A stretch of DNA of 64,000 nucleotides from Poseidonia sp. (GCA_965661285.1 CBFIDD010000001.1:530776-594775); one strand, 5' to 3'; counted from the first letter of the stretch, positions 6,649-51,116 are shown. Notes: a model not told the origin generated them from the letters alone. Numbers and translations: made by a program.

Positions 6649-8409
6649 GTGCGAGGCCCGACCGACGCCGAAGAGGAACGGCGCGCCTACGCCGAACAAT
6701 CGTCGCTGACGGCGTTGGTTCGACACCTTGGCCGAGACGTGGAAGCGTGGCTCGAAAAAGCCCTCGAACCGCTCCCCGAGACCTTTCGAATTTCCCTCCA
6801 CCGAAACGATCGCCAGTGGACCGTCGCCCAAGTCAAGACCCTCGGTGCGGAGCCGATTCCTTGGATGCCTGATGAAACCGCGTTTACGATGCCGTTTGCA
6901 CGTGGTAGAGCACCCGAGGGGTTGGCCAAACGACTGATGGCGTTGTTGCACGAAACCGGCCGCATCACTCGTCAAGAGGCTGCGAGCATGCTCCCCGTTC
7001 GTTTGTTGAAGCATGAACAGGGCATGTTGGCGCTGGACATGTGCGCCGCTCCGGGGTCAAAGACCACACAACTCGGTGAAGTACTCCATCCCAACGGCGT
7101 GGTGGTGGCCAACGAACCGGTTTCGGGACGGCTCAACATGTTGGTGAGCAACCGAAGCCGTTTGGGCCTGACCAACATTGTGGTCACCCAACACGACGGT
7201 CGCCATTTCGCCCGACTCCCCCCTCCTGGTTTTGATGCCGTCATCGCAGATGTCCCCTGTACCGGAACAGCCACGACCCGAAAAAACCGAGATGTGTGGT
7301 GGGATTGGACCCCAAAGGAAAGCCGAAGGATGTTCAAGATGCAAGTTGACATCACGATGAGGGGGGCCTCCCTCTTGGTACCGGGCGGGCACATGGTGTA
7401 CTCCACCTGCAGCATTGACCCGGTGGAAAACGAAGCCGTGGTCGCCGAAATCTTGCGCCGTTGCCCTCACCTTGAACTCGTTCCAATGAGCCTTGAGGGC
7501 GTAACGCTCCACCCTGGTTTGACCCAGTGGCCACTTCTGGATGAAGAAGGAGCGCGCGTTGACGCAAAGGGGGCTGAGCAATTACCGTTTTTTGATGCCG
7601 CCCACCTCGCTCCCTCAACGCGCATTGAGCAAGGTGTGGGCGAGGAAGGCATCGAAAACGTCATCCTTGAACAACTCCCAAGATGTATGAGATTGTGGCA
7701 CGACGACAACGACACGGGTGGATTTTTTGTCGCCCAATTTCGACACAAAACCGAGTCATCTCCCGAAGGCGTGGCACAAGCCTTCCGATCGAGGCGAGCG
7801 ACCCGGAGGGCCGAAGGCTGGACACCTACCGTAAAAACGCCCCCAAAAGCCACGGCGAATTCGGTGGTCGTCGCCGATGATGAGGTGGTGGGCCATCTGG
7901 AACAACTGTACGGTATGGCATTGAACGACTATTCACTTTGGCAGCGAGGGAAGCGGTTCAACCTCGCTCCGCCGCTGGTCTACGAACGCCTCTACAAACC
8001 CCCTTCGCCGACCAACAAAGGCGACGTTTGGGGCGGTGATTCCTTCCACCCCATGCGCGTGGTTCACGCGGGGCTTCCAGCCTTTACGTTGAAGAAGAAT
8101 TCATGGCGCAGTCGACAAGAAGCCCTGTATGCCTTTGGCGAAGGGTTTGAACGCAACGTTTTGGTCGTTGAGCCTTCGCAGTTCATTCGCATTTTGCGCG
8201 GTTGGGCGCCGCTGCTTGAGGAATTTTACGACGAGGTTGAGACCGAAGCGTTGCCGAAGGGGGCCTTCCTTCTCCGAAGCGATTTACCGTGGGGGCAAGA
8301 GACCATTTCGGTATGGATTGGGGCGCGTATCACGTTGATGATTGATACCAACGAGCAGAATATTTTGCGCCACAAATTGGATTTGCCATGGCGTGATGAG
8401 GAGGAGTGA
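6649..8409 (+). CDS. RsmB/NOP2/NSUN-family RNA m5C methyltransferase
   Basis: QEAASMLP, DMCAAPGSKT, DVPCTG, YSTCS and ENEAVV motifs. Confidence 0.93.
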   Translation: MRGPTDAEEERRAYAEQSSLTALVRHLGRDVEAWLEKALEPLPETFRISLHRNDRQWTVAQVKTLGAEPIPWMPDETAFTMPFARGRAPEGLAKRLMALLHETGRITRQEAASMLPVRLLKHEQGMLALDMCAAPGSKTTQLGEVLHPNGVVVANEPVSGRLNMLVSNRSRLGLTNIVVTQHDGRHFARLPPPGFDAVIADVPCTGTATTRKNRDVWWDWTPKESRRMFKMQVDITMRGASLLVPGGHMVYSTCSIDPVENEAVVAEILRRCPHLELVPMSLEGVTLHPGLTQWPLLDEEGARVDAKGAEQLPFFDAAHLAPSTRIEQGVGEEGIENVILEQLPRCMRLWHDDNDTGGFFVAQFRHKTESSPEGVAQAFRSRRATRRAEGWTPTVKTPPKATANSVVVADDEVVGHLEQLYGMALNDYSLWQRGKRFNLAPPLVYERLYKPPSPTNKGDVWGGDSFHPMRVVHAGLPAFTLKKNSWRSRQEALYAFGEGFERNVLVVEPSQFIRILRGWAPLLEEFYDEVETEALPKGAFLLRSDLPWGQETISVWIGARITLMIDTNEQNILRHKLDLPWRDEEE

Positions 8410-8410
8410 C

Positions 8411-9553
8411 ATGCGACATCTCGTGCTCTGCATCATCGTTGGGTTGCTGCTCGTTCCGTCCCTCTCGGCCGAAGAAGAGGCGTGGGCCATTCACGCCGAA
8501 GACGAAATTTCAACCCGCTTATCGGGTGGACTTTCCGAGGTGTATCTGCCTTCGGGGCTTGGAGGCGAGGCAACCGTGCCCGATGGCTATGTTCAGTGGA
8601 ATTGGTGGTCATGGAGCGACGAAGTCGGGTCGGATTGGCCGGACGACGATGCGATTTACAGGGCTTCGAATCGCAACATCTCACTCAATCAATCCGACAC
8701 GGAAGCTGCGGTTGAGAACCATGCCCTGGCCGGCGACGACATGGTGGAATTGGCCGGTAATGTGAAAGTGGTTTCCGCAGAAGACCGTGTACGAATGGTG
8801 GCGTTTGACCTCTCGCTCACGCCACTTCAAAACCTCAGTAACCACACCATCCTCTATGTGGTGCTGACCGAAAACATCGCCGAGGACCAGCACCGACGTC
8901 AAACCGAACATCTCGTTCGAGAAATGCGACCCGAAGTGGCCTTTTCTGTCAAAGCCAACACCACGACCGATGTCGTGTCCATGCTGCCAGCCGACCATCT
9001 TGCGGCTGCGGGCGTTGACCTCGCCGAGGAGCCGACCGGTTGGTCCTACTCCGTGGCTGTGTTTGGAAGCGAGGTGGAGGAAAACGGGACGGCGCGATTG
9101 TTGGCCTTGGCCCACGGTGATTTGCCGGCGCCTTCACGACACACGGGGATGGGGGAGGCGTGGACACCGTTGTTGCTCACAGCCATCACCGCCGTTGTTG
9201 CGGTGTTCATTGTCCTCGCTGTGCGTCAGCGTGAACAAGCAATTCCAAAACTCCAAGCCACATGGCACAGCGGACAATCGACCACGACCGTCATCAACAT
9301 CCAAGCAGGCCACCACAACTTCCGTATCACAAACTGGCACGTGACGCCGCCTTGGCGTTTCCGAGGTCGGCCACCCAAGTTGAATCTTGATGCTGGCGAA
9401 TCAAAAACCGTCGTGGTCGATTTCCGAGAACCGCATACGGAGGACTGCCATCTCGAAGTGGCCATTGACATCGAGGAATACGGTGCGTGGCGACAACATC
9501 TTTGGTTGAAGGCGAGAGAAGGCCAGGGCTCGTTCCATTCCCAAGAAGAGTAA
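8411..9553 (+). CDS. Signal-peptide-bearing single-pass membrane protein, hypothetical
   Basis: SD GAGGAG, N-terminal signal peptide, Ig-like LYVVLTEN segment, TM helix near aa 250. Confidence 0.8.
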   Translation: MRHLVLCIIVGLLLVPSLSAEEEAWAIHAEDEISTRLSGGLSEVYLPSGLGGEATVPDGYVQWNWWSWSDEVGSDWPDDDAIYRASNRNISLNQSDTEAAVENHALAGDDMVELAGNVKVVSAEDRVRMVAFDLSLTPLQNLSNHTILYVVLTENIAEDQHRRQTEHLVREMRPEVAFSVKANTTTDVVSMLPADHLAAAGVDLAEEPTGWSYSVAVFGSEVEENGTARLLALAHGDLPAPSRHTGMGEAWTPLLLTAITAVVAVFIVLAVRQREQAIPKLQATWHSGQSTTTVINIQAGHHNFRITNWHVTPPWRFRGRPPKLNLDAGESKTVVVDFREPHTEDCHLEVAIDIEEYGAWRQHLWLKAREGQGSFHSQEE

Positions 9554-11057: not shown

Positions 11058-12041
11058 ATGGTAGCAGAAGATACTGTCTTTGCTGTTCTCTATGATAAGT
11101 TCATGTTTTGGTCCATTCTGGTCGGAATTTTTACTTTCGGCTGGTTGTTTTTGGCCATGCTTCGCTATCGAGACGGCGTCGAGCCCGATACCACACAAAT
11201 CGACCACATCGAGGTGGGTTCGTTCCCGGTCGACCGACACAACACCAAACTTGAGGTGTTTTTCTACGTCCTGCCGACGGCCATCGTTGCGTGGCTCATC
11301 GTCCTCGCCCTCTCATCCAACACGGCGGTTTGGGTCATCCCTGAGGAAGCCGAAGCTCACGACATGAAAATCATCGGCAAGCAGTGGTTCTGGGAATACG
11401 AGTATAAAGACGCCCTGACATGGGAAGACGACCCCGCCATCACCTACATCGACGTTGACTGGAGCGGTACGGCCCTGACCGTGTCAAGTACCAACGCTGC
11501 TGCGGTGAATGTTTCCATTCAGAAAGGTGCAGATTCCCTTCCAGGGAAGTCGCTTGACACTGTAACAGGAGATGCACTCATCGAGGAGACCTTTGACCCC
11601 TACAAGCATTCCATCGTTGAGGTAACCGACGCAGACGGAAACGTGCTCCACACCTGGATGCACATCCCTAAGCAACACGTGTTCTCCTCTGCCCTTGGCG
11701 AAGACATGATTCTTCCTTGCGATGAGGCGGTCGTGTTTGAGATGCACTCCGCCCCCTCTGACGACTCTAACCCCAACTACATCGGCGTCCAGCATTCGTT
11801 CTGGCTCCCTGAATGGGGCGTCAAAGAAGACTTGGTGCCCGGCATCGAAGGTGGCACCTACATGACCATCACCGCCGACGACCCCGGCACCTTCCCCATC
11901 CGTTGTGCAGAGTACTGTGGCAACCAGCACTCCATGATGATCGGTCAAGTCAAGATCGTCGCCGCTGAAGGCACCGATTGTTCGGTTGACACCGGCGTCA
12001 AGAAGAGTGGCGAGTCGCCCCCTGCTGGAGGTGCGTACTGA
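11058..12041 (+). CDS. coxB: Heme-copper oxidase subunit II (CuA)
   Basis: Two TM helices, GKQWFWEYEY, VQHSFWLP, CAEYCGNQHSMM. Confidence 0.95.
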   Translation: MVAEDTVFAVLYDKFMFWSILVGIFTFGWLFLAMLRYRDGVEPDTTQIDHIEVGSFPVDRHNTKLEVFFYVLPTAIVAWLIVLALSSNTAVWVIPEEAEAHDMKIIGKQWFWEYEYKDALTWEDDPAITYIDVDWSGTALTVSSTNAAAVNVSIQKGADSLPGKSLDTVTGDALIEETFDPYKHSIVEVTDADGNVLHTWMHIPKQHVFSSALGEDMILPCDEAVVFEMHSAPSDDSNPNYIGVQHSFWLPEWGVKEDLVPGIEGGTYMTITADDPGTFPIRCAEYCGNQHSMMIGQVKIVAAEGTDCSVDTGVKKSGESPPAGGAY

Positions 12042-14362
12042 TGCGAGGTCGTGTCACGCTCCTGCTCGGCGTGCTCTTGGTCGCATTGATGGCCGCACCT
12101 CAATTCACAGCTGCTCCCGGCGGCATTGGCTCTGCCGGCGACCAAGGTTGTACCTGTCACGGCGGTGCCTCCCCCGACACCACGGTTCTCGTGGACGGCC
12201 TCCCTGAAACCTACAACGCCAGCGAGACGTACACCTTCACCGTCACCGTGCAAAACGACGTAATGGAAATCAACGAGGTCGACTGGAACGGACGAGCCGG
12301 TGGATTCCGCATCCTCGCGTCCCACGGCGACATCACCGCCGTGCCCGAATCCTACAGCCAAATGATGGACGGTGGACTCACCCACACGGAAGAAGCCAAC
12401 ACCGTTCGCTCGTGGACCTTCGAATGGACCGCTCCCGCTGCTGACGACCTCAACGTCGAGATGACCATTTACGGCAACGCTGTGAACGGTGGAAACGGTG
12501 CTGGAGGCGACCACTGGAACGTCGCCACCGTCGCCGTCGCAGGGATCAATGCTGGCGCCGTTGCAGCCAGTGCCAGCGCCCTTGTGATTTTCCTGACCTC
12601 CATTGGACTCGCTGCCGGCCTCATCTTTGCGGGTATCTTGTGGGTGTTCTACCGCCGCTCACCCGAGACCTTCACCATGGAACGGTTCTGGAGCTTCCTT
12701 AAGCCGTGGCTGACCACAACCGACCACAAAGAAGTCGGCATCATGTACTTCCTGTTCGGGTTCTTCTTCTTCCTCGTTGGTGGACTGTTGGCCCTGCTCT
12801 TCCGCATTCAGTTGGCGCTGCCTGAGAACGATTTCCTCACCTACGACGAGTACAACTCCTTCTTCACGCTGCACGGAACGACGATGATTTTCCTCGCCGC
12901 CATGCCGATGATTGCTGGATTCATGAACTACATCCTCCCGCTTCAAATCGGCGCCAAAGACCTCGCTTTCCCACGCATCAACGCCATGGGTCTGTGGTTG
13001 CTCGTCTTCTCCGCACCCCTCATTTTCACCGGCGTCTTTTCAGGTGAGGGTGCTGACATCACGTGGGTCATGTACCCGCCCTATTCCTCACTCAACGAGG
13101 CAAACCTCGGGTCAACCCTCGCCGATTACGGTTCGAACCCCGGCACAACGGCGTTCATTTCAGGCATGCTCATGCTCGGTGCTTCCTCGACCTTGGGCGG
13201 TGTGAACTTCATCACCACCGTGTTCACCATGCGTGCGCCCGGTGTGACGTGGATGAAGATGCCGCTGTTCACCTGGTCGGTCTTCATCAGCGTGTTCATG
13301 CTCTTCATGTCCCTGCCCGCACTCATCATCGGTGTGGCCTTCCTTCTGTTTGACCACACCATCGGAACGCAGTTCTTCGTTGCCGGGGGCGACCCGTTGC
13401 TCTTCCAACATCTGTTCTGGTTCTTCGGCCACCCCGAAGTCTACGTCGTCATCGTGCCGGCCTTCGGTATCGTTTCAGAGGTGCTCGCCACCTCCGCACG
13501 CCGCTCCATCTTCGGCTACAAATCGATGGTGTTCGCCATGGCCGGTATTGGTATCGTCGGTTTCATCGTGTGGGGCCACCACATGCTAACCTCCGGTATG
13601 GACCCGTTCTGGCGTGCGCTTTTCATGATCATGACCATGCTCGTCGCCATCCCGACCGGTGCGAAGATCTTCAACTGGCTCGCCACCCTGTGGGGCGGCT
13701 CGCTGGTGATGAAAACCCACACCCTCTGGTCGTTGGGCTTCCTGGTCACCTTCACGCTGGGTGGTATCTCAGGTATGTTCTTTCCCGTGGCTGGTCTTGA
13801 CATCCACTTCCACGATTCCTACTTCGTGGTGGCTCACTTCCACTACGTGTTCATCGGTGGTACCGTCTTTGCCCTGTTCTCTGCTGTCTACTACTGGTTC
13901 CCGAAGGCCACTGGACGCAAACTCAACGAAACCCTCGGACTGTGGCACTTCCTCATCGGCTTTGCCTCTTACAACGCTGCCTTCTGGCCCATGCACGCCC
14001 TAGGTATCATGGGCATGCCTCGACGAACCCACACCTACACCATTGAATCCGGCTTTGCAGAATACAACATGGCCGTCTCGACCTTCGCCTTCATCTTCGG
14101 TATCAGCCAACTTCTGCTTGTCTGGAACATCATATACTCTGCACGACGTGGAGAACCCGTGGGCAAGGACCCATGGGGCGGCTGGTCCCTCGAATGGTCC
14201 ACGACCTCCCCGCCGCCGACGCCTTCTTTCCACGACATTCCTACGCAGTACGATAAGAATGAGGAATTCGGTCATCACAAGGACGAACCGTCCTTGATGG
14301 ACAGGCTGGTGAAAGCAGAACCGAAAGGTATTGTCGTCGGTCATGTGGAGGGAGAAGAATGA
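12041..14362 (+). CDS. coxA: A1-type heme-copper oxidase subunit I with an N-terminal secreted CxCH/Reeler-like domain
   Basis: WLTTTDHKEVG, TLHG, DLAFPRIN, WFFGHPEVY, WGHHM, TGAK, HFHY; about 220 aa N-terminal extension. Confidence 0.97.
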   Translation: MRGRVTLLLGVLLVALMAAPQFTAAPGGIGSAGDQGCTCHGGASPDTTVLVDGLPETYNASETYTFTVTVQNDVMEINEVDWNGRAGGFRILASHGDITAVPESYSQMMDGGLTHTEEANTVRSWTFEWTAPAADDLNVEMTIYGNAVNGGNGAGGDHWNVATVAVAGINAGAVAASASALVIFLTSIGLAAGLIFAGILWVFYRRSPETFTMERFWSFLKPWLTTTDHKEVGIMYFLFGFFFFLVGGLLALLFRIQLALPENDFLTYDEYNSFFTLHGTTMIFLAAMPMIAGFMNYILPLQIGAKDLAFPRINAMGLWLLVFSAPLIFTGVFSGEGADITWVMYPPYSSLNEANLGSTLADYGSNPGTTAFISGMLMLGASSTLGGVNFITTVFTMRAPGVTWMKMPLFTWSVFISVFMLFMSLPALIIGVAFLLFDHTIGTQFFVAGGDPLLFQHLFWFFGHPEVYVVIVPAFGIVSEVLATSARRSIFGYKSMVFAMAGIGIVGFIVWGHHMLTSGMDPFWRALFMIMTMLVAIPTGAKIFNWLATLWGGSLVMKTHTLWSLGFLVTFTLGGISGMFFPVAGLDIHFHDSYFVVAHFHYVFIGGTVFALFSAVYYWFPKATGRKLNETLGLWHFLIGFASYNAAFWPMHALGIMGMPRRTHTYTIESGFAEYNMAVSTFAFIFGISQLLLVWNIIYSARRGEPVGKDPWGGWSLEWSTTSPPPTPSFHDIPTQYDKNEEFGHHKDEPSLMDRLVKAEPKGIVVGHVEGEE

Positions 14363-15714
14363 GTGGCGGAGAAGCTCACGTTGAGAACAGCGTTTGGATG
14401 CGCGCCGTCTTGATCGGTGGCGTCTTCCTCGCCATCGGTATCCTCGCCTTCGCCACCATGGGCGTTGGTGTGGCCAACATCAAACACCACGATTATGACG
14501 TCGCCATTGAGGAGTATGAGGACGCCAAGTACGCTTACGAAGACGCCAAAGCCAACGGTGCCAGCGAATCGGAAATCAAATCCCTTAAGGAAGCCAAGGA
14601 AGAAGCGCACCACCATGAAATAGAAGCCCATCTATCTTACTTAACGTGGCGAACAGCAGGCATTACCATCCTGCTGATGTGCATCACCTATGCAGCCTTC
14701 ATGGGCCTGGGTGGCTTCATGAACTCGATTTATCCCGACGATGCCGGTCATGACGACCACGGCTACGGTGGCGATGACCACGAGCACCACGGTTCAGGCT
14801 CGCCGATCGTGTTCTCGCTGGGTATTCTGCTCTTCTTGATGGGCTTCCCGTCCTTCCAAGGCGTGCTTGGTAACTTGCTTTCCGGCGTGGATGCCAACCT
14901 TAGCGACCTGGGTTTGAGCATGCTCGGCCTGGTGGTTGTCACCGCCGGTGTTGCCAACTGGTGGCGTGAAGACCTGCCGTTTATCGGCAATCACGAGCAA
15001 ATTGCGACCTCCGATCCCTTTGAAGGTCAACACATCCGCAAGGCCGGCCTTTGGGTCTTCATTATGTCCGAAGTGATGGTTTTCGCCACCTTCTTCTCGT
15101 CCTACCTCCGCATGCGCACAGAATGGTGCACAGGCTGGCAGGTCAACGCTGGAAATTGTGAGGAAGTGAACATGCTCACGGCCTCCGATTTCCTTCGACC
15201 CAACGGCGCCATGCTCGACGGACTGGGTGGACAAGGCGACTTCATGACGCTCTTACCCGGTGCCATCAACACCTTTGCGCTCATCATCTCCTCCTACACC
15301 ATCGTGCTGGCCCTCAAGACGGCCAAGGACAAGGAGTGGACGGCCCCCTCAGGATTCATGGGCAAGCTGATGCCAACCCGAAAAGTCGCTGTCCGAAACT
15401 ACCTGCTCGCTACGTTCATTCTGGGTTCGATGTTTATTGTGCTGAAGCTCATTGAATGGAGCCATCTCGTTGCAGAAGGCTTCACCATCGGAACCCAAGC
15501 GGGCTCCATCTTCTACATCTCAACTGGCGCTCACGGCGTGCACGTCTTTGTCGGCTTGCTCGTGATGCTGTACTTGATTTTCAAGGCAGGCTTTGCTGGA
15601 GACGATGTTGAATATGACGAGAGAAACGCTCAGGGCATCGAATACTTCGGTTTGTACTGGCACTTTGTCGACTTGGCTTGGGTGGTTATCTTCCCGGCCT
15701 TCTATCTGTATTGA
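14359..15714 (+). CDS. coxC: Heme-copper oxidase subunit III with an N-terminal extension
   Basis: GLWVFIMSEVMVFATFF, INTFALIISS, TGAHGVHV, GLYWHFVDLAW. Confidence 0.93.
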   Translation: MSGGEAHVENSVWMRAVLIGGVFLAIGILAFATMGVGVANIKHHDYDVAIEEYEDAKYAYEDAKANGASESEIKSLKEAKEEAHHHEIEAHLSYLTWRTAGITILLMCITYAAFMGLGGFMNSIYPDDAGHDDHGYGGDDHEHHGSGSPIVFSLGILLFLMGFPSFQGVLGNLLSGVDANLSDLGLSMLGLVVVTAGVANWWREDLPFIGNHEQIATSDPFEGQHIRKAGLWVFIMSEVMVFATFFSSYLRMRTEWCTGWQVNAGNCEEVNMLTASDFLRPNGAMLDGLGGQGDFMTLLPGAINTFALIISSYTIVLALKTAKDKEWTAPSGFMGKLMPTRKVAVRNYLLATFILGSMFIVLKLIEWSHLVAEGFTIGTQAGSIFYISTGAHGVHVFVGLLVMLYLIFKAGFAGDDVEYDERNAQGIEYFGLYWHFVDLAWVVIFPAFYLY

Positions 15715-15723
15715 GGTGAGATC

Positions 15724-16119
15724 ATGGGAGAACACGAAACAACTGGAATCTTGGAATCAATTGTTGAAAAACTGCCGGGTGGCTACGACATCTACTTTTG
15801 GAACTTCGTCATCTTGATGTTCTTCACGCTGTTCGAAGTCGCCGCCGTTTTCTTTGAGAAGATCCCCGGTACGGACATTGAAATTTCGCTCTACGCTGTT
15901 TGGGCTATCTTGATTGGCGTTGGTGTCATCAAGGGCTACGGCATCGCTGCCTACTTCATGCACTTGAAGGGCGACCCCCGTATCTACACCCGAACAGCGC
16001 TGTTCCCCGTGCTCTTTGTCTTGTTGATGCTTTGGGGTATCGGACTTTCCAACCCGGGTTCTGTCCAAGCGCTTCCCGACTGGTGCACGCCCAACTGGGA
16101 GTTTGCTAGCCAACGCTGA
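15724..16119 (+). CDS. coxD: Heme-copper oxidase subunit IV family
   Basis: Three TM helices, T..EV, K...IAAYFMHLKGD; SD GAGGTGA. Confidence 0.88.
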   Translation: MGEHETTGILESIVEKLPGGYDIYFWNFVILMFFTLFEVAAVFFEKIPGTDIEISLYAVWAILIGVGVIKGYGIAAYFMHLKGDPRIYTRTALFPVLFVLLMLWGIGLSNPGSVQALPDWCTPNWEFASQR

Positions 16120-16128
16120 GGGTCAACC

Positions 16129-17655
16129 ATGCGAGCCAGCCAAAAAGCACTGGCCGTACTGATGCTCTCGGTTCTCCTGATGGCGCCCGCTTCTGCCTAT
16201 CTTGGTAAACAGTTGGCACGCGGTCCGGTAGATGACTTCACGCTCCTCGACCACAAGGGCGAGTCGTACACCTTTGGAACGGACGCTGAAGGCGTGGTCG
16301 TCGTTTCGTTCATCTTCACCCGATGTCCGGATGTTTGTCCGGTGCTGACGCAGAAATTGATTGCAGTGGACGGGGAACTCAGCGATGAGGAGCGGGAGGA
16401 CGTCACCTTCGTTTCCATCAGCGTTGACCCCGACCACGATACGCCAGAGGTGCTCATGGAATACACCGAGCGCATGGGTGCGTCATGGCCGCATCTCACC
16501 GGTTCAACCGAAGAGATGCAACCGATTTGGGACATGTTTGGGGTGGTGGTTCAACAAAACGTCATCGACATGCACGTGATGGAGTACCAGCCCGGTGAAG
16601 CCTCCGTCACCGTGGTGGACACCGGCAACAACAGTTCTCAACACATGTTCGCTTGGTCGGGATGGAGCATCACACAAACGATGGCATCGACGGCCAATTT
16701 GAGCCTCAACACCTCCGTGCACAGCGAATACGGAACCACCGTCCACGGCATCAACGGCGTGGATTCACCGTCCGACTGGTCGTGGTGGTGGGAGCTCAAC
16801 CTTTGGAATGCCACCAACAGCTCCTGGGAACCATCCGATGTTGGCGTGGACAGCGTGGACGGGTTGGACCATCCACACATCGCCTGGTTGCCCTCAAACG
16901 GCAATCGAAGTGCGCTTTCGCCACCCCACGATGACCATGCGACAAGCTTGAGTGTGCAGTGGCCCAACGGTACGCAAGAACAGTTCGGGCAGGAGGCGTT
17001 CAACGCCTACCACATCACGCAAGGTGCGCTCAACGGGGCCGACGTGAACACGTCCATTGAACTCACAACCTACGGACACTACCTCTCAAGCCTCGGTGAC
17101 GAAGACGCCCCTGACGATTATGCGTGGTGGTGGAACCTCTACGGATGGAATGCAACCGACGAAATGTGGGAATCCTCCAGCGTCGGCATGGACGATTTCA
17201 GCGAACCGCTGCACCTCGCTTGGGCACCCTCCTACACCAATGCCTCAACCATACCAGCCCCAACCGTTGAAGCCTCTGATGAAACGGTCTGCAACGGACA
17301 TGGATGGGAAATGGGCAGCGGCGAATCAAAGCACTGCATGTGCGACAGCGGCTACATCTGGGCCGAGGACGACCAGTTGAGTTGCGTGCCCGAAACCACC
17401 GAGGAATACAACGTGGGCCATTCCACCATCACCTACATTCTCAACGATGATCTTGAACCAACCGTGGCATGGACCGGCGATGCTTGGCGCGTCGAAGACT
17501 TCACGGCCGACGTGAGAGAACTCCTTGAGAAGGAACAATTGGGTGGCTACGAAGCCGGTGTGGTGCCCTCAATTTCGTTGTTGATGACCACCATCGCACT
17601 GCTTTCAGCCACTGTTTTCCTTGGCGCACGCCGAGATGAGACGGACGAAGAGTAG
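16129..17655 (+). CDS. Sco/SenC copper chaperone with a large internal insertion and a C-terminal TM anchor
   Basis: FIFTRCPDVCP, ISVDPDHDTPEVL, W.HLTG; the conserved distal His (YNVGHS) lies about 290 aa further downstream than usual. Confidence 0.9.
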   Translation: MRASQKALAVLMLSVLLMAPASAYLGKQLARGPVDDFTLLDHKGESYTFGTDAEGVVVVSFIFTRCPDVCPVLTQKLIAVDGELSDEEREDVTFVSISVDPDHDTPEVLMEYTERMGASWPHLTGSTEEMQPIWDMFGVVVQQNVIDMHVMEYQPGEASVTVVDTGNNSSQHMFAWSGWSITQTMASTANLSLNTSVHSEYGTTVHGINGVDSPSDWSWWWELNLWNATNSSWEPSDVGVDSVDGLDHPHIAWLPSNGNRSALSPPHDDHATSLSVQWPNGTQEQFGQEAFNAYHITQGALNGADVNTSIELTTYGHYLSSLGDEDAPDDYAWWWNLYGWNATDEMWESSSVGMDDFSEPLHLAWAPSYTNASTIPAPTVEASDETVCNGHGWEMGSGESKHCMCDSGYIWAEDDQLSCVPETTEEYNVGHSTITYILNDDLEPTVAWTGDAWRVEDFTADVRELLEKEQLGGYEAGVVPSISLLMTTIALLSATVFLGARRDETDEE

Positions 17656-17698: not shown

Positions 17699-17784
17699 GC
17701 AGTCGTCGCATAGCCTGGTATTGCGCCGGATTTGAAATCCGGTGTCCCCGTGACTCGGGAGTTCAAATCTCTCCGACTGCGCCA
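17699..17784 (+). tRNA. tRNA-Ser(TGA)
   Basis: Acceptor GCAGTCG/CGACTGC + G + encoded CCA; anticodon stem CCGGA/TCCGG with loop ttTGAaa; long variable arm; GTTCAAATC T-loop. Confidence 0.95.
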
Positions 17785-17842
17785 CTCCGATATCGACAAA
17801 AATCAGGGAAGACTTCTCAAACTCCACCCGCTCTCTCGGGGT

Positions 17843-19306
17843 ATGCGCAGAGGTACCCTCGCCATCTGTCTCATCGCCAGCATGCTTCTGGCTGGTTGCC
17901 TCGGACCCTCAACAGCCGAATGGGGAACGGGTTCGGGAGCGGTCCAGGTGGACTTCGCCATGGATGGCACCACCGTCAAAAGCACCTTGCTTGGTGAGTC
18001 TCGAACCGTAAGCGACCTGCTCCCGGTCGGTTGCACACCCGGAACAGAAGGCGGCACACTCGAAGCCGGTGCCGGCAGCCCCATCACGTTCACAGGCTAT
18101 CTTGCTGCAAGTCAGTTTTACGACGCGCACGACAGCGTGATGGGCGCCCGGGGTCTTGACGTTGGTGTCACAACTGCGGTTGCGATACAGTCCATGCCCT
18201 TTGATGCGGCCGCCTCGGTGGTTGATGGCGAAGGCGCTCGAATCGATGTCAAGCAATGGGCGCTCCCCCTCCAGCCCGACACGGGTGCGGGAAGCGTTGA
18301 CATCGATGAAGTCGATTCGGAGTCCGAAACCGATTGGTTTGTCCTCGGACTGATTCCAACCACGGAAAATCTCCTTGACGGCATGAAGGCCTTGGGCGAG
18401 TGGCATCAACCCGTGACGGTTCACGGTTACCTCGTATCTGCAGCCAACTCGAGTCAAAACGCCTACGGGTACCAAGCCACATGGCACAAAGCCAGCAACG
18501 AATGCGCATTGACGGTTGGATCGACCAACAAGGAAGACGCCTACGTGCTTGTCTCAAAGATTTCTCTCGACGGCGCCACCGTTTCAGCCAACGGTGAAGC
18601 GGACGACGAATGGGTTCAGGGTGATGTGCCCTTCCTCGGTCGAGGCGGATTCATCATGTTCTTCCTCATTGCTGGCCTTGGCGGTGCCGTCGGCCTGTTC
18701 ATCGTCTCCAAACAGATGATGATGGGGGCAGCCCAGAAGAATATGCGGATCCTCATCGGCGACGAGGGCATGAAGAAGGCGGCCAGTGTCAAAAAGGACG
18801 CCAAGGCTGCCAAGAAGGCAGGTATGGAATCGCCTGAAGATCGTCAACGCCGGCAACAACGCGAACGTCAACAAGTCGAAAAAGAACAGAAGAGAAAACA
18901 ACCCCCAGCAAAGAGCGAACCCAAGAAGAAGGACGAAGACGCCTTGGGTGGATTTGACCTTGACAGCGTGCTGGCATCAACCTCATCGGGCGGACCCGGC
19001 GGTTCTGCCCCCAAAGGCCGAAAGAGTTCGGTGGTCGTCACCGAGGCGGCTCAAGAAATGGAACACATGAATGCACAACAAGAGACGACGACCACAACAT
19101 CATCCCTTCCTGCTTCGTTCTCACAGCAGCGCCGAAGTGCACCGCCAACGCAGACACGGTCCGAGCAACCTACAGAAGCCCCCGCCAAGCCCAAGGTCCG
19201 ACGTCGGAAGGCCGTGAAGAGGTCTGCTTCCGAACCTGCAGAAGAGCGTGCTCCGCCTGCTGAACACTACGATGACGAAGAGGACTTCTCCGACTTCTCG
19301 TTCTAG
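17843..19306 (+). CDS. Putative lipoprotein/membrane protein with a charged low-complexity cytoplasmic tail
   Basis: Lipobox-like LAGC after the signal peptide, TM at about aa 270-290, K/E/S-rich tail. Confidence 0.82.
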   Translation: MRRGTLAICLIASMLLAGCLGPSTAEWGTGSGAVQVDFAMDGTTVKSTLLGESRTVSDLLPVGCTPGTEGGTLEAGAGSPITFTGYLAASQFYDAHDSVMGARGLDVGVTTAVAIQSMPFDAAASVVDGEGARIDVKQWALPLQPDTGAGSVDIDEVDSESETDWFVLGLIPTTENLLDGMKALGEWHQPVTVHGYLVSAANSSQNAYGYQATWHKASNECALTVGSTNKEDAYVLVSKISLDGATVSANGEADDEWVQGDVPFLGRGGFIMFFLIAGLGGAVGLFIVSKQMMMGAAQKNMRILIGDEGMKKAASVKKDAKAAKKAGMESPEDRQRRQQRERQQVEKEQKRKQPPAKSEPKKKDEDALGGFDLDSVLASTSSGGPGGSAPKGRKSSVVVTEAAQEMEHMNAQQETTTTTSSLPASFSQQRRSAPPTQTRSEQPTEAPAKPKVRRRKAVKRSASEPAEERAPPAEHYDDEEDFSDFSF

Positions 19307-44967: not shown

Positions 44968-47526
44968 TCAACGGGCATCGTCGTGGGCGAAATCCGCACT
45001 GGTTTCCAATAAGAAAATCGCTTCTCGCGTGAGTTTGTACCGGTTCTTCACGCCCATTTTTCGGCGTTCGACCAGGCCGAACTTCTGGAGCGTTCGCAGG
45101 TGGTGAGAAATCAATTGCTGGCTCTTTTCCAAGCGCTTGGCGAGTTCAGCTTGTGTCGGGAATTGACCCATGCCTCCGTCCTCGTCCAAGAGGTTGAGGA
45201 TTTTCCCTTGCAGGCTGTTTGGATCTGGCGAAAGTGGAGGGACGGGGAGGTCTGCTTCCTTGGTGCTGGGATTGAGTTGATTCGTGAGCGGGTAGAAACG
45301 AACGAGCCGCCCGTCGTTCCTGCGCCAAACGTGTTCTTCGGCTTCGAGTATTCGCAAGTGGTGTGTGATCTGCCCGTTGCTCATCTCAAGTGCGCTCATG
45401 AGGGCCCGGAAATGGCAACCGGGGTTAGCCGTCAAGTAGCCCATCAAGCGTCCGCGCTGATAGCGCCCATCGGTGGTTTCGTGTGTTTTTCCTAGAAGAC
45501 CAAGGAACCACAAGCCGGCCACCGTCGCCGGAAGCCGTAGCGCTTCGTTGGTGGTGGCAGCCACGACAAAAAGTGAAAGGATGGAAGCGGTGATGACAAC
45601 GGAAACAACCGCAACCGCAGGGCTTGATTGGACCAAAGGTGTTTCTTCTGCAATCGGTGCTGCAACCACCGGCTTCTCCTCCGTGGCAAGCGATTCTTCC
45701 ATGCGAACCTCAACCACTTCCACGGAAGGAGCGATGAAGCCCGCACAAGCAGGTGATGGGTCGGCGAGAACGACCAGGTAGAGGCCTTGGGTTTGGGCGT
45801 TTGGCGACCACGCAGGAAGGGTCTTTGCGTTGGAGAGCAGATGGGTCGCTTCGCCGTCATCCATGACAAAACACGTGCCCTGTTCGGTGGAGATTTCAGC
45901 CCATGTGCCAAGGAGTTCAAACTCCTCATTCACAAGCGGGGCATCTGCGGTTGTTGTCGCATCATCCTGGTGGTCTTGCGGCCAAGAAAATGGAAGCGAT
46001 GTCGTGGATTTTCCCGTTGCCAAAATATTCACTTGAACGGTGTAAACCCCCTCAGGAATGATCGCTGTGCCGTCTTGGACCAAATCGATCACAGGCGAAT
46101 CAAAAACCAAGCCATCGGGGGACGGCGGGACCAAGATTTTCCGACCTTGGTTGAACGTACAAAACATCGGGAGAGCGTGAGCAATGTCACCTTCTGCGTC
46201 AAAGAAGATGGCCTCAAAGGTACAGGGTTCGGTGAGACGCACATATTCACTTGTTTCACCCGATAACCCAACGGAGAGGTTGATGGTGCTTTCATCAAGC
46301 CATGTCAATGATGCGTCAATACTGGCTGTAATCGCTTCAGCACATGTACCAATATTTTGGGAAAGATAGTGAATGGATTGGCTTGCAACCAGTCCGTGTT
46401 CAGGTACCTCAGCGACGACGATGTAGGTACCAGAAGGCGCAGCGCACCCATCGTCAAGGTAGAAGTTCCACTGGGGCAGCGATAGCCGTGCTGGCTCTTC
46501 GCTGAGGGCAAGTTCCAATTCAATAGCGGCGCAGGTCTTGGATTCCCTTGAATCAAACACGATGTTCCCCACGTCGTCGAGAACCCACATTTCGGCCTTG
46601 CATGACGTTGTAAATTCAACCACCACGGGATCGACATCTGTCGAGACGAGGAGGACCTCGCTTCGCAACTGGTCCCCCTGCTCAAAGATGGAGTCTGTAT
46701 TTCCGCTTACTTCAACCGACATCGCAATGGACGGACTCGGTGAAGACGTTGTTGAGGTTTCCTCGGCGGAGGTGTAGGTAAACTCTGCACCGGGCGTGGA
46801 GATTGTAACCGCTTCGTCGGGGAAGGCGAGGACCTGCTCGACAAGAATCGATTCCCCGGGTATCAACGTTGCTCCGCTGTTAAAACACGATGAGCCAAGA
46901 CGGTAATGCTGACCCCTTTGAATCTCGAAAAAGCATGTTGGAGTTGTTGACAAATTGACGGTCGAGGAGGTAGGATTGTACAAACTGACGAGGTGGGCAC
47001 GCGGCCCTTCAGCATCCGGTCGCTCCGTTGTGATGACTGAGAACGCCAATCCATCTGGAACAGCGACTGGTGTTTGCACGACGACGTCCTGCGTGAAGGT
47101 CAGGCCACTTGAGTGGTAGAGTTCAACGGTGTACTGGCTGCTTTCCAACCACTGACCTTCGGTGTCTTTCATGGACCACGCAACGGGGTGAAACGATACC
47201 CTTTCTCCGGCGAAGACGTCCATGCCTTGCTCACGGACCGGACAGGCATCCATGCCGTTCACCACCTGAGCGCCCGAGGTGTCGTACACGTTGTAAACAA
47301 ATGGACAAACGGGGTTCACGGTCAGGGAAGCATCAGGTCCGTTGTTGACCAGAGTTGGTGTCAAAATGAGGGGGTGCTGTGGCGAATACCACGCTGTCTC
47401 CGGCGGTGTATCCTCGCTGACTTCAAGCGTGAGTTCACCCGAATCAGCCGACGCCATGCCGATGAAGAGCGAGGCGAACAACAGCCCCACCAACACCAAC
47501 ATTCGGCCTGCCGGCTTCTCGCCCAT
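44968..47526 (-). CDS. Membrane-tethered transcriptional regulator: extracellular Ig-like repeats, TM and tandem winged-HTH
   Basis: Signal peptide, repeated Cys-paired beta domains, TM, then RG...Y...NPG.HF..L......NG...HHL and TQAELA..L..SQQLISHHL..L...GLV. Confidence 0.85.
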   Translation of the reverse strand: MGEKPAGRMLVLVGLLFASLFIGMASADSGELTLEVSEDTPPETAWYSPQHPLILTPTLVNNGPDASLTVNPVCPFVYNVYDTSGAQVVNGMDACPVREQGMDVFAGERVSFHPVAWSMKDTEGQWLESSQYTVELYHSSGLTFTQDVVVQTPVAVPDGLAFSVITTERPDAEGPRAHLVSLYNPTSSTVNLSTTPTCFFEIQRGQHYRLGSSCFNSGATLIPGESILVEQVLAFPDEAVTISTPGAEFTYTSAEETSTTSSPSPSIAMSVEVSGNTDSIFEQGDQLRSEVLLVSTDVDPVVVEFTTSCKAEMWVLDDVGNIVFDSRESKTCAAIELELALSEEPARLSLPQWNFYLDDGCAAPSGTYIVVAEVPEHGLVASQSIHYLSQNIGTCAEAITASIDASLTWLDESTINLSVGLSGETSEYVRLTEPCTFEAIFFDAEGDIAHALPMFCTFNQGRKILVPPSPDGLVFDSPVIDLVQDGTAIIPEGVYTVQVNILATGKSTTSLPFSWPQDHQDDATTTADAPLVNEEFELLGTWAEISTEQGTCFVMDDGEATHLLSNAKTLPAWSPNAQTQGLYLVVLADPSPACAGFIAPSVEVVEVRMEESLATEEKPVVAAPIAEETPLVQSSPAVAVVSVVITASILSLFVVAATTNEALRLPATVAGLWFLGLLGKTHETTDGRYQRGRLMGYLTANPGCHFRALMSALEMSNGQITHHLRILEAEEHVWRRNDGRLVRFYPLTNQLNPSTKEADLPVPPLSPDPNSLQGKILNLLDEDGGMGQFPTQAELAKRLEKSQQLISHHLRTLQKFGLVERRKMGVKNRYKLTREAIFLLETSADFAHDDAR

Positions 47527-47585
47527 GTGAAAACATGGCCCGTTCTCCTTTGAAAGGTCAGCGGTGCAAACGATGCGTGAAGCAC

Positions 47586-50500
47586 TCAGAGGTCTTCGAG
47601 GTTCAACATGGTTGGAATTGCAGCCTCTTGCGCAGCTTGCTGTTGCATCTCGTGTTGCTTCCACTCCGGAAGACCTTCGGTGCCCTCCCAGCCCAGTGCT
47701 CGTGCTTCAGCATAATTGCCCTCAGCGATGTAGTGTTGAATCCAAGCCTGACGACGTTCTTCTTCTTCGGCAAAAGAGGCTTGCACCATTTGTTCATCTC
47801 GCTTCGCTGCCATCGCTTTCCGCTTTCCAGCGGCACGAGCGACCTGGGCTACGACGATCAATGCGAGCAGGAAGATGATCACCCCGCCCATCAACTGGAC
47901 CGTGCTGTTATCGCCACCCAAAAGGGAACCGCCGCCCTCTCCGTCGTTGGTTTGCAAACTTGGGTCGGAGGTGATGGCGCAATTGGCGGTGCTTCGAGCG
48001 CCTTCGGAGACCGCTGGGTCCCAGGGACACGGGTCGGCATCGTCCGATACACCGTCGTTATCGGCATCGGGACAGCCGTACTCGTCATTGGCGGTTGAGG
48101 TCCCAGGAACCTTTGGGCAGGCATCGGGTTGGTAGGCACCTGCGACGGCGTTATCCCCGAAGCCGTCGCCGTCGAAGTCATTCCACTGCGTAGCACGGAG
48201 CGGGAAGTTGTCCACGCGATTGGAACTGCTCTGATTGTCGCCCCAGCCATCGCCGTCAATGTCCGACCACTGGGTCGCAATCTCAGGGAATGCATCCCCG
48301 CGTTGTTCTCTCAAGGTGATGAACAAGCCAATGTTTTCTGAATCGGCTTCGGTGATGTTTTCCCAGTAGTAATTGTCGCCCCAGCCATCACCGTCAAAGT
48401 CGGACCACTGCTCGAAATCCTCAGGGAAGGCGTCGTCAACATCAGCGTACCCGTCAAGGTCGGCGTCGGGGCAACCTTGGCGACCTTCTTCGTAGGACTT
48501 CCCAAACACGTCCACGCAATCGTCTCCGTTGGGGACGTTCGTGTTGTCGCCATAGCCGTCGCCATCAGCATCGGCCCACTGGAAGGGGTCGTCTGGGAAA
48601 GCATCGAGCGGGTCGGTCACGCCGTCAAGGTCAGAATCGGGGCAGCCTCGGCTGGCAGGTTCTTGGGACTCACCGTATTCAAGCGGACAGACATCGCCCT
48701 TGGTGCCGTCGGCGTTGTCGCCGTAGCCATCGCCGTCCTCATCGCTCCACTGCGTGGGGTCGCTGGGGAAGGCATCGCCGTTGTTGCCACCGGGGTTGTC
48801 CCCGTAGCCGTCACCGTCGCTGTCCTTCCACTGACTGGTATCATCGGGGAACGCATCGGGGTTGTTTCCGCTGGCGTTATCGCCACGGTTATCGCCGTCT
48901 CGGTCCGACCATTGTGTGGCATCATCGGGGAAGGGGTCGCCTGCGTTGGAGTACCCGTCCCCGTCTCTGTCGGCACAACCAATGCGGTCGATGGTGGATG
49001 AGCCGGCGCTGTTCGGGCACACGTCCGGGTCGTTTCCGTCGGGATTGCTACCGAAACCATCACCGTCTTCGTCGCACCACTGTGTCGGGTCGTTTGGGAA
49101 GGCATCGGCGCCGTAGCAGTCGGGTGTGGTGGGCCAATTCGCCGTCGGGTCAGAATAGCCGTCGCCGTCGGTGTCCGGGCAGCCGAGACGGTCGTATTGG
49201 GAGTCTCCCCAAGCGTCGGGGCAGGCATCCGCACGGTCGCTGTTCTGGTTGTCCCCAATCCAATCACCGTCGCTGTCCATGTGTTGCGTTCGGTCAAGGG
49301 GGAAGGCGTCCGGCATGTTTGCAGCGGGCAAAAGCAGGCCTGGCCATGTCGGTGGCCGGTACGAGGTCCACGATGTGTTTTCGTAGTTATCGCCGAAGCC
49401 GTCACCGTCGGTATCGTTCCATTGGGTTGGATCGTTCGGGAAGGCATCACCGGTTTGGTTCACGTGGTACTGGTATTCGTCCACATCGAACAGGTAATTA
49501 TCGCCGTAGCCGTCTTCATCCGCATCGACCCACTGGTCCGGGTTGAGCGGGTCCCAATCGCCTGCATCGGACCAACCGTCGCCGTCGCTATCGGGGCAGC
49601 CAAACCGGTCTTCTGCCGAAGCACCGGGGGTGTTGGGGCAGGCATCAGGTTCGTTGGCCGGTGCGGGATTGTCGCCGAAACCATCGGCGTCCGTGTCGTT
49701 CCATTGCGTGCCGTCGGACGGGAAGGCGTCCACGATGCCATCGCCTTGGTCGGTGGTGTTGTAGCCGTCGTTGTCTTCATCGATATCGGCGTACCAGTAG
49801 TAAACGCCCTCATCGTTTCGGCCGTGAGCCGTGACGATGTGCGTGCTGTCCGGGCTCCATGCAACACCGTAGATCGTCCCGCACTGGTTGTTGTTTCCAG
49901 AAGTGCATCCACCGGGGCGAGGGCCGCTGAACGAATCCACTTGGACGCCGGTGTTGGAATGGTAGACCCTGGCCGTGGCGCCGTCGGTTTGGTACCAATA
50001 CATCCCCGAAATCACCTGCGAGCTGTCAGCGGAGAAGGTGGTTGATCCGCAAGAGGTGGAGGTTGTCTTTTGCCAGATGCGGTTCCATGCTCCGTTGGCA
50101 AACTGGTACATGTCAAAACTCGCCGATTGGCCTTCCCAACCGCCGCACATCGAGATGTAGTTCCCGTCGGGTGACCATGCGACCGCATTAACGGCGGCTG
50201 GAGGGTTGGTGAACGTCCACGTGGTCGCTCGTGAGGTCGTGTTGACGATGTAGATGTCGCCGTTGCCGGCCATGGCAATGTATTGGCCGTCGGGTGAATG
50301 TGCAAGGTCGTAGAAGCGGTCCTCACCGTTTGGATTGACAGCGTAAAGTTCCGTTCCCGTTTGCACGTCGATGACGGTCACTTCGCCGTTGGTTCCGCCG
50401 TTTCCTGAGCGGCCGATGGCCACGGCGACCGACGAACTGTCGGGTGAGAACTCAATCGCATTCACTTGGTCGCCACCACCAACGTCAACGCTGATGCTGC

Positions 50501-51011: not shown

Positions 51012-51029
51012 ACATTTCCGTGTCTTGTC

Positions 51030-51047
51030 ATTATAAAGGGGTTTTTG
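51030..51047 (-). promoter_or_regulatory. Putative BRE/TATA for a leaderless WD40/TSP3 transcript
   Basis: Minus strand reads aaaaaccccTTTATAAT, about 20-28 nt upstream of ATG 51011. Confidence 0.55.
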
Positions 51048-51116
51048 TGAAAATGCTCAAACACACATACCAATCCAACACGAAGTTTTGAACGGACGAA
51101 AAGATTCCCTAGCGGC

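Follow-up and report, generated by a model that had tools for sequence, protein, structure and literature searches.

What is an outward-facing domain doing in front of the catalytic subunit of a terminal oxidase? This question is raised by the coxA gene (12041-14362, plus strand, 773 aa) of Poseidonia sp., which lies in a stretch of 64,000 nucleotides (GCA_965661285.1, CBFIDD010000001.1:530776-594775) that was analysed as a whole and is called the window in the following; all positions are counted from its first letter. Ahead of a haem-copper oxidase subunit I, the gene codes for a signal sequence, a Reeler-like domain of the choice-of-anchor V family and an extra transmembrane (TM) helix, TM0. 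The domain carries a CX1CH motif, in which a sequence-only reading of the window had seen a possible built-in module for electron input. Our preferred reading, to which we assign a probability of roughly 35-40%, is that this ectodomain is a redox relay that bears a cofactor (covalent haem or a metal) and is tethered beside the CuA centre. Marine group II (MGII) archaea are uncultured heterotrophs that rank among the most abundant in the surface ocean.

The reading frame of coxA is open from 12041 to 14362. The predicted signal sequence (aa 1-25, 12041-12115) coincides with a hydrophobic segment at aa 1-26 and is of the Sec type, not of the Tat type: of 106 full-length fused proteins, only 14 have a pair of arginines within the first 15 residues, and none has a Tat-like consensus. 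The ectodomain (aa 26-168, 12116-12544) is a beta-sandwich. It contains the motif Cys37-Thr-Cys39-His40 within GCTCHGG (12149-12160), a candidate site for the attachment or ligation of a cofactor, as well as His115 of LTHT (12383-12385), a candidate second ligand, the segment WTFEWTAP (aa 125-132) and Asp157 of the GNAVNG...GD loop (12509-12511), an acidic and nearly invariant residue. According to hydropathy, TM0 spans aa 178-204 (12572-12652) and is directly followed by YRRSPETF. A conserved linker, RRSPETF...FW..LKP (aa 205-222, 12653-12706), which is predicted to be cytoplasmic, connects TM0 to the core; in the window protein and 67 fused homologs P208 and F211 are invariant, while F216 is retained in 67 and W217 in 66 of the 68 sequences. 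The subunit I core (aa 223-773, 12707-14362) starts with WLTTTDHK at W223. The sequence-only reading, which had proposed a signal peptide, one extra helix, the four ectodomain segments (NAVNG...GD in the case of the loop) and a subunit I start at about 12707, thus proved accurate as to the layout of the gene.

The positive charges (YRR) after TM0 indicate that its C-terminal end is cytoplasmic, which places the ectodomain outside the membrane. Such an orientation is also required by the known topology of subunit I, the N-terminus of which is inside. The outward topology assumed by the sequence-only reading is thereby supported. The core is an A-type haem-copper oxidase subunit I according to its profile match and its conserved motif residues. 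Pfam COX1 (PF00115) matches aa 232-685 with 485 bits, and TIGR02891 matches with 639.5 bits, slightly under its equivalog cut-off of 670.75. In the motifs GHPEVY, GHHM and HFHY, the residues H464, E466, Y468, H513, H514, H599 and H601 are invariant in 42 sequences, and we take these invariant His, Tyr and Glu residues to belong to haem a, haem a3 and CuB.

The fusion is also found in other genomes. A search with aa 1-222 returned 67 homologous clusters (proteins of 425-1353 aa), and all 67 carry PF00115, with an extension that is 35-82% identical. Loci were scanned in one genome per GTDB species with a smaller alignment as query, and the best 80 of 217 relatives, nearly all of the Poseidoniales type, were evaluated. 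The titles of these loci refer mostly to Poseidoniales, Poseidoniaceae, Thalassarchaeaceae or Poseidonia; others are generic archaeal or Thermoplasmatota-type titles, and one refers to Verrucomicrobiales. The fused gene is present in 60 of the 80 loci, in one of them (L078) cut by the contig end, and a coxB gene with CuA motif lies directly upstream of it in 54. The other 20 loci code for a free paralog (L039, L047, L048, L053, L056, L058-L065, L068, L072-L074, L076, L077, L079; the match lies at about 7900-8570 in most). These free paralogs have 196-229 aa and always a CX1CH motif, and all 20 consist of a signal peptide, the domain, a linker of about 20 aa, a C-terminal TM helix and a short charged tail. 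Both forms occur together in at least five metagenome-assembled genomes (MAGs; contig prefixes JBMSEL01, PBGS01, PAJN01, PAQE01 and CAXGWS01).

Such a fusion could in principle be mimicked by an error in the assembly of the contig or by a start codon placed too far upstream, so that a separate gene ahead of coxA is joined to it, and database entries of about 200 aa with the same sequence, e.g. P0219 and P0222, might be taken for separate genes. Most of these short entries are located on contigs of 0.6-6.5 kb, however, and the closest ones include forms in which COX1 starts, so that we read them as pieces of the fused gene. An artefact is also contradicted by the open frame, by the conservation of the linker between TM0 and core, and by the start of coxA, the ATG of which has one base in common with the coxB stop codon (TGATG). 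As the same uninterrupted architecture is found in 67 of 67 clusters from independent sources, and as the 60 loci (of 80) with the fused gene belong to different MAGs and single-cell genomes, the fusion is not due to assembly or start codon errors, an explanation which we regard as having virtually no probability. The one-base overlap fits translational coupling of coxB and coxA within an operon.

The ectodomain is a choice-of-anchor V member according to a curated test. The NCBIfam model NF041895 "choice-of-anchor V" matches aa 17-163 (12089-12529) with 94.5 bits (E=6.3e-27, cut-off 42), covering profile positions 4-148 of 150. The layout typical for this family, i.e. a C-Xn-C-H motif together with a signal and an anchor, which was derived here from its members and not from the NCBI description, is seen in CoxA as CX1CH at aa 37-40, a signal segment at aa 1-26 and an anchor helix at aa 178-204. 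NCBI already labels some Poseidoniales pieces as choice-of-anchor V, and both the family and the fused proteins are present in public databases. Our literature search found no paper on the choice-of-anchor V family or on its fusion to CoxA, and a search on reeler domains in bacteria had only papers on animal immunity among the matches listed.

Similarity to Reeler is evident at the level of the fold. The AlphaFold2 model of aa 20-170, computed from an alignment of 102 sequences, is a beta-sandwich of high confidence (predicted local distance difference test score, pLDDT, 94.6; predicted TM-score, pTM, 0.89). A Foldseek search against PDB lists the F-spondin reeler first (3coo_B, E 1.9e-5, TMq 0.54), followed by 2zot and 2zou; the three reeler structures have E values of 1.9e-5 to 1.2e-4 and TM values of 0.46-0.54. 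A profile built from the same alignment and compared to all PDB sequences retrieved only the three Spondin-1 chains (E 0.003-0.0055), while a sequence search of PDB with aa 1-222 found nothing at E up to 10. Pfam, on the other hand, gave no match to aa 1-222 at E up to 1, its Reeler family PF02014 (cut-off 21 bits) included. Even among the relatives that were scanned, only P0113 passes this cut-off (24.3 bits), and P0310 (20.0), P0295 (19.9) and P0216 (17.0) remain below it. Atlas searches returned hypothetical clusters, with a Reeler tag on 12-13% of the members, and CoxA fragments. The likeness to Reeler and choice-of-anchor V domains, which the sequence-only reading had claimed, therefore holds for choice-of-anchor V by sequence and for Reeler by fold and profile, but not by the Pfam Reeler test. 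We are nearly certain that the first 222 codons of coxA specify a Sec-type signal, a choice-of-anchor V ectodomain of 150 aa with Reeler fold, and TM0.

The CX1CH site is under strong conservation. In the window protein and its 67 fused homologs, Cys39, His40, His115 and Asp157 are each found in 68 of 68 sequences and Cys37 in 67, so that the conservation of CxCH and of the THT histidine, on which the sequence-only reading depended, is borne out. Among the 54 non-overlapping open reading frames (ORFs) of the window, the CoxA motif is the only one that conforms to C-X(1-4)-C-H. Its presence is not a matter of chance. Across the family, the spacing of the cysteines was classified in 354 near-complete domains, a sample biased towards relatives of the window protein: CX1CH occurs in 329, CX2CH in 13, CX4CH in 4, and CX3CH and CX8CH in one each. 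The six domains without the motif are truncated entries or contain errors. Whatever the spacing, a histidine directly follows the second cysteine in the 348 motif-classed domains, for which the invariance of Cys/Cys/His holds by construction. Asp157 is present in 310 of 329 CX1 domains (with 16 gaps) and in 17 of 19 domains with longer spacing. The NF041895 cut-off is passed by all 17 members tested, which have CX1, CX2 and CX4 spacings. Members with CX2CH or CX4CH include choice-of-anchor V proteins of Bacteroidia, so named by NCBI, and others from Acidobacteria, as well as proteins of the MYXO-CTERM type. The sequence-only reading had stated that bacterial versions carry CxxCH; this is correct for distant bacterial members but concerns only a minority of the domains in our query-biased sample (the 13 of 354).

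The window motif does not conform to any of the c-type cytochrome motifs that were tested (CXXCH, CX3CH, CX4CH or CXXCK). Spacing variation of the kind seen in the family is, however, also a feature of haem c motifs, with CX2CH, CX3CH and CX4CH forms, and c-type cytochromes likewise have Sec-type signals. A Sec-type signal makes a cofactor that is inserted in the cytoplasm, such as an iron-sulfur cluster, unlikely. We have also considered a Rieske-like [2Fe-2S] site, as CxCH is the box II of Rieske proteins as well (stated in the available part of PMC4122944). This candidate was rejected: the domain has only two cysteines, no CxH box I, no match to a Rieske hidden Markov model (HMM) and no Tat consensus.

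The domain is not restricted to CoxA. One protein, P0163 (647 aa), combines choice-of-anchor V with three CARDB repeats, a plastocyanin/halocyanin-like cupredoxin and a C-terminal membrane anchor. This protein links the domain a second time to electron carriers of the outer face. A further, abundant set of about 318 aa (P0275-P0297) has the CX1CH domain followed by a conserved C-terminal membrane part with several helices, for which Pfam gave no match; single clusters of this set contain up to 179 sequences. The choice-of-anchor V domain is thus a general module of the cell surface that has been recruited to respiratory proteins of the outer face at least twice.

As regards MGII respiration, the available part of Tully (2019, PMC6336850) lists complexes I and II and cytochrome c oxidases of low affinity. 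A cytochrome b and a Rieske protein are reported as well, but a canonical bc1 complex is lacking. The published chain is thus incomplete at cytochrome c1, and the CoxA ectodomain, and also the free paralog, are candidates for the missing link between the Rieske/cytochrome b complex and CuA. In the "MGII Core" sheet of supplementary file 4 of that paper, which covers two groups of 158 and 92 genomes, ccmC is listed for 141 and 89 genomes, respectively, and ccmF for 149 and 92; the corresponding values for coxA are 136 and 81. The names ccmA, ccmB, ccmE and ccmH were not found in the supplementary files as available. The term "cytochrome c" occurs six times in supplementary file 4, and the rows displayed concern CcmF, oxidase subunits and assembly, with no entry for a c-type cytochrome among them. 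The CoxA ectodomain or the free paralog could be a substrate of the core-listed CcmC/CcmF.

A reduced set of cytochrome c maturation (Ccm) proteins is not unusual for archaea. The available text of PMC9084895 states that CcmD, CcmH and CcmI are absent from archaea and that CcmABCEF are enough for maturation in Methanosarcina, and assigns the handling of the apocytochrome in bacteria to CcmH and CcmI. Archaeal c-type cytochromes have been detected in few orders, and system I is the sole maturation system found in them, as stated in the part of Kletzin (2015, PMC4429474) that we could use. A literature search for Marine Group II together with c-type cytochromes gave no paper that deals with MGII cytochromes by title. 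The main text of Rinke (2018) contains none of the terms cytochrome, ccm, halocyanin, plastocyanin and heme, and one of its supplements none of the terms ccm, cytochrome c and halocyanin. The other genes of the window include neither a blue copper protein nor a ccm gene.

We propose that the ectodomain is exported in the unfolded state and would be loaded with its cofactor outside the membrane. The cofactor site would be formed by Cys37-x-Cys39-His40 and completed by His115 and possibly Asp157. Haem is the cofactor that we favour: it would be bound to Cys37 and Cys39, with His40 as proximal and His115 as second ligand, and would be attached by a streamlined archaeal Ccm system. On a tether of about ten residues, the ectodomain could then act as a one-electron relay at the outer face of the oxidase, with electrons passing from the Rieske/cytochrome b complex or from halocyanin to the ectodomain and on to CuA. 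The free tail-anchored paralog may be the mobile form of the same carrier. Cofactor binding, the identity of the cofactor, proximity to CuA and electron transfer are what we infer here, because the motif is a strict C-Xn-C-H with variable n, the domain is exported via Sec, the core Ccm proteins are apparently without substrate, cytochrome c1 is missing, and the domain has been fused independently to CoxA and to a halocyanin-like protein. Co-folding of the CoxA core (aa 223-740) and CoxB (aa 1-320) with the ectodomain resulted in an ipSAE of 0.00 in both runs; these were made without controls, and the result speaks neither for nor against docking.

The proposal can be extended to a more ambitious version. 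MGII choice-of-anchor V domains might constitute a new class of c-type cytochromes, with a Reeler fold, a CxCH haem site and maturation by Ccm, in which the fused copy is the point of electron entry while the free paralog shuttles from the Rieske/cytochrome b complex, the two together replacing cytochromes c1 and c. We consider this version rather doubtful. If haem is bound by CX1CH, the range of haem c motifs would be widened and a new fold added to the c-type cytochromes, and a new way to build a donor into a haem-copper oxidase would be known. Should copper or nothing be bound, there would still be a first functional context for the widespread NF041895 family of surface domains.

Several observations weigh against the redox relay. 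We know of no CX1CH protein that binds haem covalently, a literature search for CXCH yielded no haem protein (the sole mention was a regular expression in a screening pipeline), and the profile of the ectodomain finds no cytochrome among the PDB sequences. At position 115, Gln takes the place of His in 27 of 348 family domains (the other 321 have His), so that a bis-His haem cannot be a family-wide feature. The cysteine spacings are interleaved on the tree, where CX2 needs at least five changes among close relatives, and a disulfide loop would tolerate such changes at least as easily as a haem site. Many members are part of adhesin-like surface proteins, with SprB, PKD, CARDB, BACON, TIG or choice-of-anchor D domains or the tails of the type IX secretion system (T9SS), and binding is the role of the known Reeler domains. 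The free paralog has housekeeping and not respiratory genes as neighbours, namely those for isocitrate dehydrogenase, OsmC, FtsZ and RadA, and a PKD protein. As to haem attachment, the MGII Ccm entries in the available part of PMC6336850 are KEGG GhostKOALA names, and no ccm-like ORF with a WWD motif was found in the window and the 80 loci (1.1 Mb). Finally, the accessible part of Damashek (2021, PMC9723583) reports genes for halocyanin and plastocyanin in MGII and their high transcription in Thalassarchaeaceae (MGIIb), and thus a conventional donor to CuA exists.

Part of this evidence would suit an ectodomain that has a structural or docking role without any redox cofactor. Cys37 and Cys39 would then form a disulfide loop that stiffens the N-terminal segment, a possibility that we judge somewhat unlikely. 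The role of His40, His115 and Asp157 would be to bind a structural ion or to form hydrogen bonds, and the surface of the domain would bind halocyanin, the Rieske/cytochrome b complex or parts of the envelope, for which our estimate is equally on the low side. Fold and profile do match a binding module, the F-spondin reeler, and the matches that follow it in the Foldseek list, which are also strong, are Ig-like domains of pilins and adhesins. The occurrence of the family on adhesin-like surface proteins points in the same direction, as does the lability of the cysteine spacing in close relatives (CX1, CX2, CX4, CX8), and His115 is replaced only by Gln, a residue that can substitute for it in hydrogen bonding. 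However, a plain disulfide does not explain why a histidine follows the second cysteine in the 348 motif-classed domains, nor is it evident why the domain has been fused repeatedly to respiratory proteins, i.e. to CoxA at two positions of the tree and to the halocyanin-like cupredoxin. Moreover, CcmC and CcmF of the MGII core would be left without a candidate substrate.

A second alternative is a role in the handling of copper. In this case Cys37, Cys39 and His40, with or without His115, would bind Cu(I) outside the membrane and deliver it to CuA or CuB during assembly of the oxidase; as a variant, the domain would capture scarce copper for both the oxidase and halocyanin. We regard delivery as distinctly unlikely, and the capture variant as improbable to the same degree. 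Two cysteines and two histidines are typical ligands of copper, and these four residues are invariant. Cox11/CtaG, Sco and PCuAC are beta-rich domains that are tethered to the membrane at its outer face and serve the same enzyme by means of Cys/His copper ligands; Cox11, which has a CFCF motif, combines a CxC motif with an Ig-like fold and a membrane anchor. A Sco1/SenC homolog is coded in the same operon, both respiratory fusion partners of the domain (the haem-copper oxidase and the halocyanin-like cupredoxin) are copper proteins, and export by Sec suits metal loading outside the membrane.

Nevertheless, the window domain belongs to a different fold family than the copper proteins just mentioned and is fused permanently to its would-be client, and such a 1:1 fusion would be unusual for a chaperone. 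With aa 1-222 no match was obtained to the HMMs of copper chaperone families, Cox11/CtaG, Sco and PCuAC included (E limits of 1 in Pfam and of 10 in NCBIfam), and membership in these families was therefore rejected. A fixed Cu(I) site is not easily compatible with the variable cysteine spacing, many members reside on outer-surface proteins of Bacteroidota, far from copper enzymes, and an exposed Cu(I)-thiolate would presumably be unstable in oxygenated sea water.

Returning to the redox relay that we prefer, its closest counterpart in proposed function would be the caa3 oxidase, e.g. of Thermus thermophilus (2yev). Both are A-type haem-copper oxidases with an outward domain fused to a core subunit. 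In caa3 oxidases this is a class I cytochrome c (all-alpha, CXXCH) at the C-terminus of subunit II, whereas in the window it is a Reeler-fold CX1CH domain, connected via an added helix to the N-terminus of subunit I. CoxB has no CxxCH motif, and the cytochrome c domain on subunit II that characterizes caa3 oxidases is absent, so that the likeness would be one of function, with differences in carrier subunit, fold and motif. The free-standing NF041895 proteins share with CoxA the domain by HMM, the N-terminal C-Xn-C-H and the succession of signal peptide, domain and anchor, but in CoxA an oxidase subunit with 12 helices follows on from the anchor helix. The F-spondin Reeler (3coo, 2zot, 2zou) is the best fold match and the sole sequence-profile match in PDB, but its aligned part lacks both the CxCH segment and the His of THT. 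To our knowledge, no cofactor has been described for animal reeler domains.

Cytochrome f provides a precedent for a beta-sandwich c-type cytochrome; its haem motif is close to the N-terminus of the mature protein, which is anchored in the membrane by one helix at its C-terminus. Its fold match is weak (1e2z_A at rank 37, E 7.6e-4, TMq 0.55; 2jxm_B at rank 45) and far inferior to that of the reeler; cytochrome f has a CXXCH motif, and there is no relation at the level of sequence profiles. In the CYBDOM proteins (SDR2/FRRS1/CG8399), too, a reeler domain precedes a haem protein of the membrane: it is extracellular, lies N-terminal to a membrane-spanning cytochrome b561 and is described as being of unknown function in the available part of PMC10691727. 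Even a finding of copper or of no cofactor in CoxA would bear on these puzzling reeler domains of eukaryotic cytochrome b561 proteins.

The origin of the fusion was approached by a FastTree analysis of 224 non-redundant domain sequences. The main fused group has 52 rows (47 flagged as fused and 5 short entries) and a support of 96. It adjoins a group of 54 free sequences, including the free paralogs of Poseidoniales, with a support of 95, and the joining node is weak (64). A second small set of CoxA fusions (P0108, P0068, P0259 and P0268) is found elsewhere on the tree. P0111 and P0216 were also flagged by the motif test, but Pfam shows no COX1 in them, and they were discarded as false positives. 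Given the layout of the free paralogs (signal peptide, domain, tail anchor), an in-frame fusion to coxA by which the anchor became TM0 is the simplest explanation. TM0, which is predicted to run from outside to the cytoplasm, thus probably is the counterpart of the C-terminal tail anchor, and the outside-to-inside orientation of that anchor would have made direct joining to the cytoplasmic N-terminus of subunit I possible. We infer that a tail-anchored surface protein was joined in-frame to coxA once or twice. The fusion in the Poseidoniales would date to the base of this order or earlier, since it is carried by loci labelled Poseidoniaceae and by loci labelled Thalassarchaeaceae.

Two observations on individual loci may be added. 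The free paralog gene is convergent with ftsZ and close to radA and the genes for isocitrate dehydrogenase and OsmC, and this neighbourhood is conserved but offers no clue to the function of the paralog. The locus labelled Verrucomicrobiales (L001, NZEQ01000060.1) codes for a fused CoxA of 773 aa with an ectodomain 96% identical to that of the window, which is best explained by the misplacement of archaeal sequence in a bacterial MAG.

The other genes of the cox operon are also coded on the plus strand. Subunit II is specified by coxB (11058-12041, 327 aa), which has a Pfam COX2 match and the CuA motif CAEYCGNQHSMM at aa 283-294; the columns of the CuA ligands are invariant across 33 orthologs. 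Besides COX2, Pfam lists one sub-threshold match and no cytochrome c domain for this protein. Within its cupredoxin domain, the MGII subunit II is enlarged by an insertion of some 100 aa (aa 118-215, 11409-11702), which is modelled as a beta-rich subdomain with pLDDT values of 92-96 for aa 110-220 (mean of the whole protein 76.7). In the 33 orthologs, His198, His202, Cys221 and Cys308 show little or no variation. A fold search with the complete chain returned only ordinary subunit II structures, 2yev_B among them. The insertion could be a contact partner of the CoxA ectodomain.

Downstream of coxA follows coxC (14359-15714, 451 aa), which codes for a subunit III homolog with a long N-terminal extension (Pfam COX3 at aa 344-450) and which comes after coxA also in related loci. 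Within the extension, aa 127-147 (14737-14799) form an acidic, His-rich stretch with 7 His in 21 aa that could bind metal. Next are coxD for a prokaryotic subunit IV (15724-16119, Pfam COX4_pro) and the gene for the homolog of Sco1/SenC-type copper chaperones (16129-17655, 508 aa), with Pfam SCO1-SenC at aa 36-145 and CPDVC at aa 66. In the latter protein, the Pfam match ends at position 111 of 134 of the profile and the end of the Sco fold seems to resume near aa 428 as judged by eye, so that a region of about 290 aa looks to be inserted in the Sco domain. By visual inspection, this region contains two Trp-rich repeats, one of which was located by a regular expression at aa 217, and a Cys-rich segment. 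A C-terminal hydrophobic stretch, also identified by eye, is a putative membrane anchor.

The operon is flanked by two ORFs that have no Pfam family (8342-9553, 403 aa, and 17732-19306, 524 aa), with three genes between the upstream ORF and coxB. In each of them, a hydrophobic segment at the N-terminus and a membrane helix further on were recognized by eye, so that they may be exported or membrane proteins. Further genes of the window are archaeal and include those for DP2 DNA polymerase and the primase large subunit. A tyrosine recombinase gene (1731-2816, Pfam Phage_integrase, 133 bits) is located between ORFs without Pfam matches, and this region, close to the left end, may represent an integrated element. 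A protein of 898 aa (44968-47664) has C-terminal helix-turn-helix domains, and at 47586-52670 a WD40 beta-propeller protein of 1141 aa on the minus strand lies beside an AAA_16/STAND-type NTPase of 517 aa on the plus strand.

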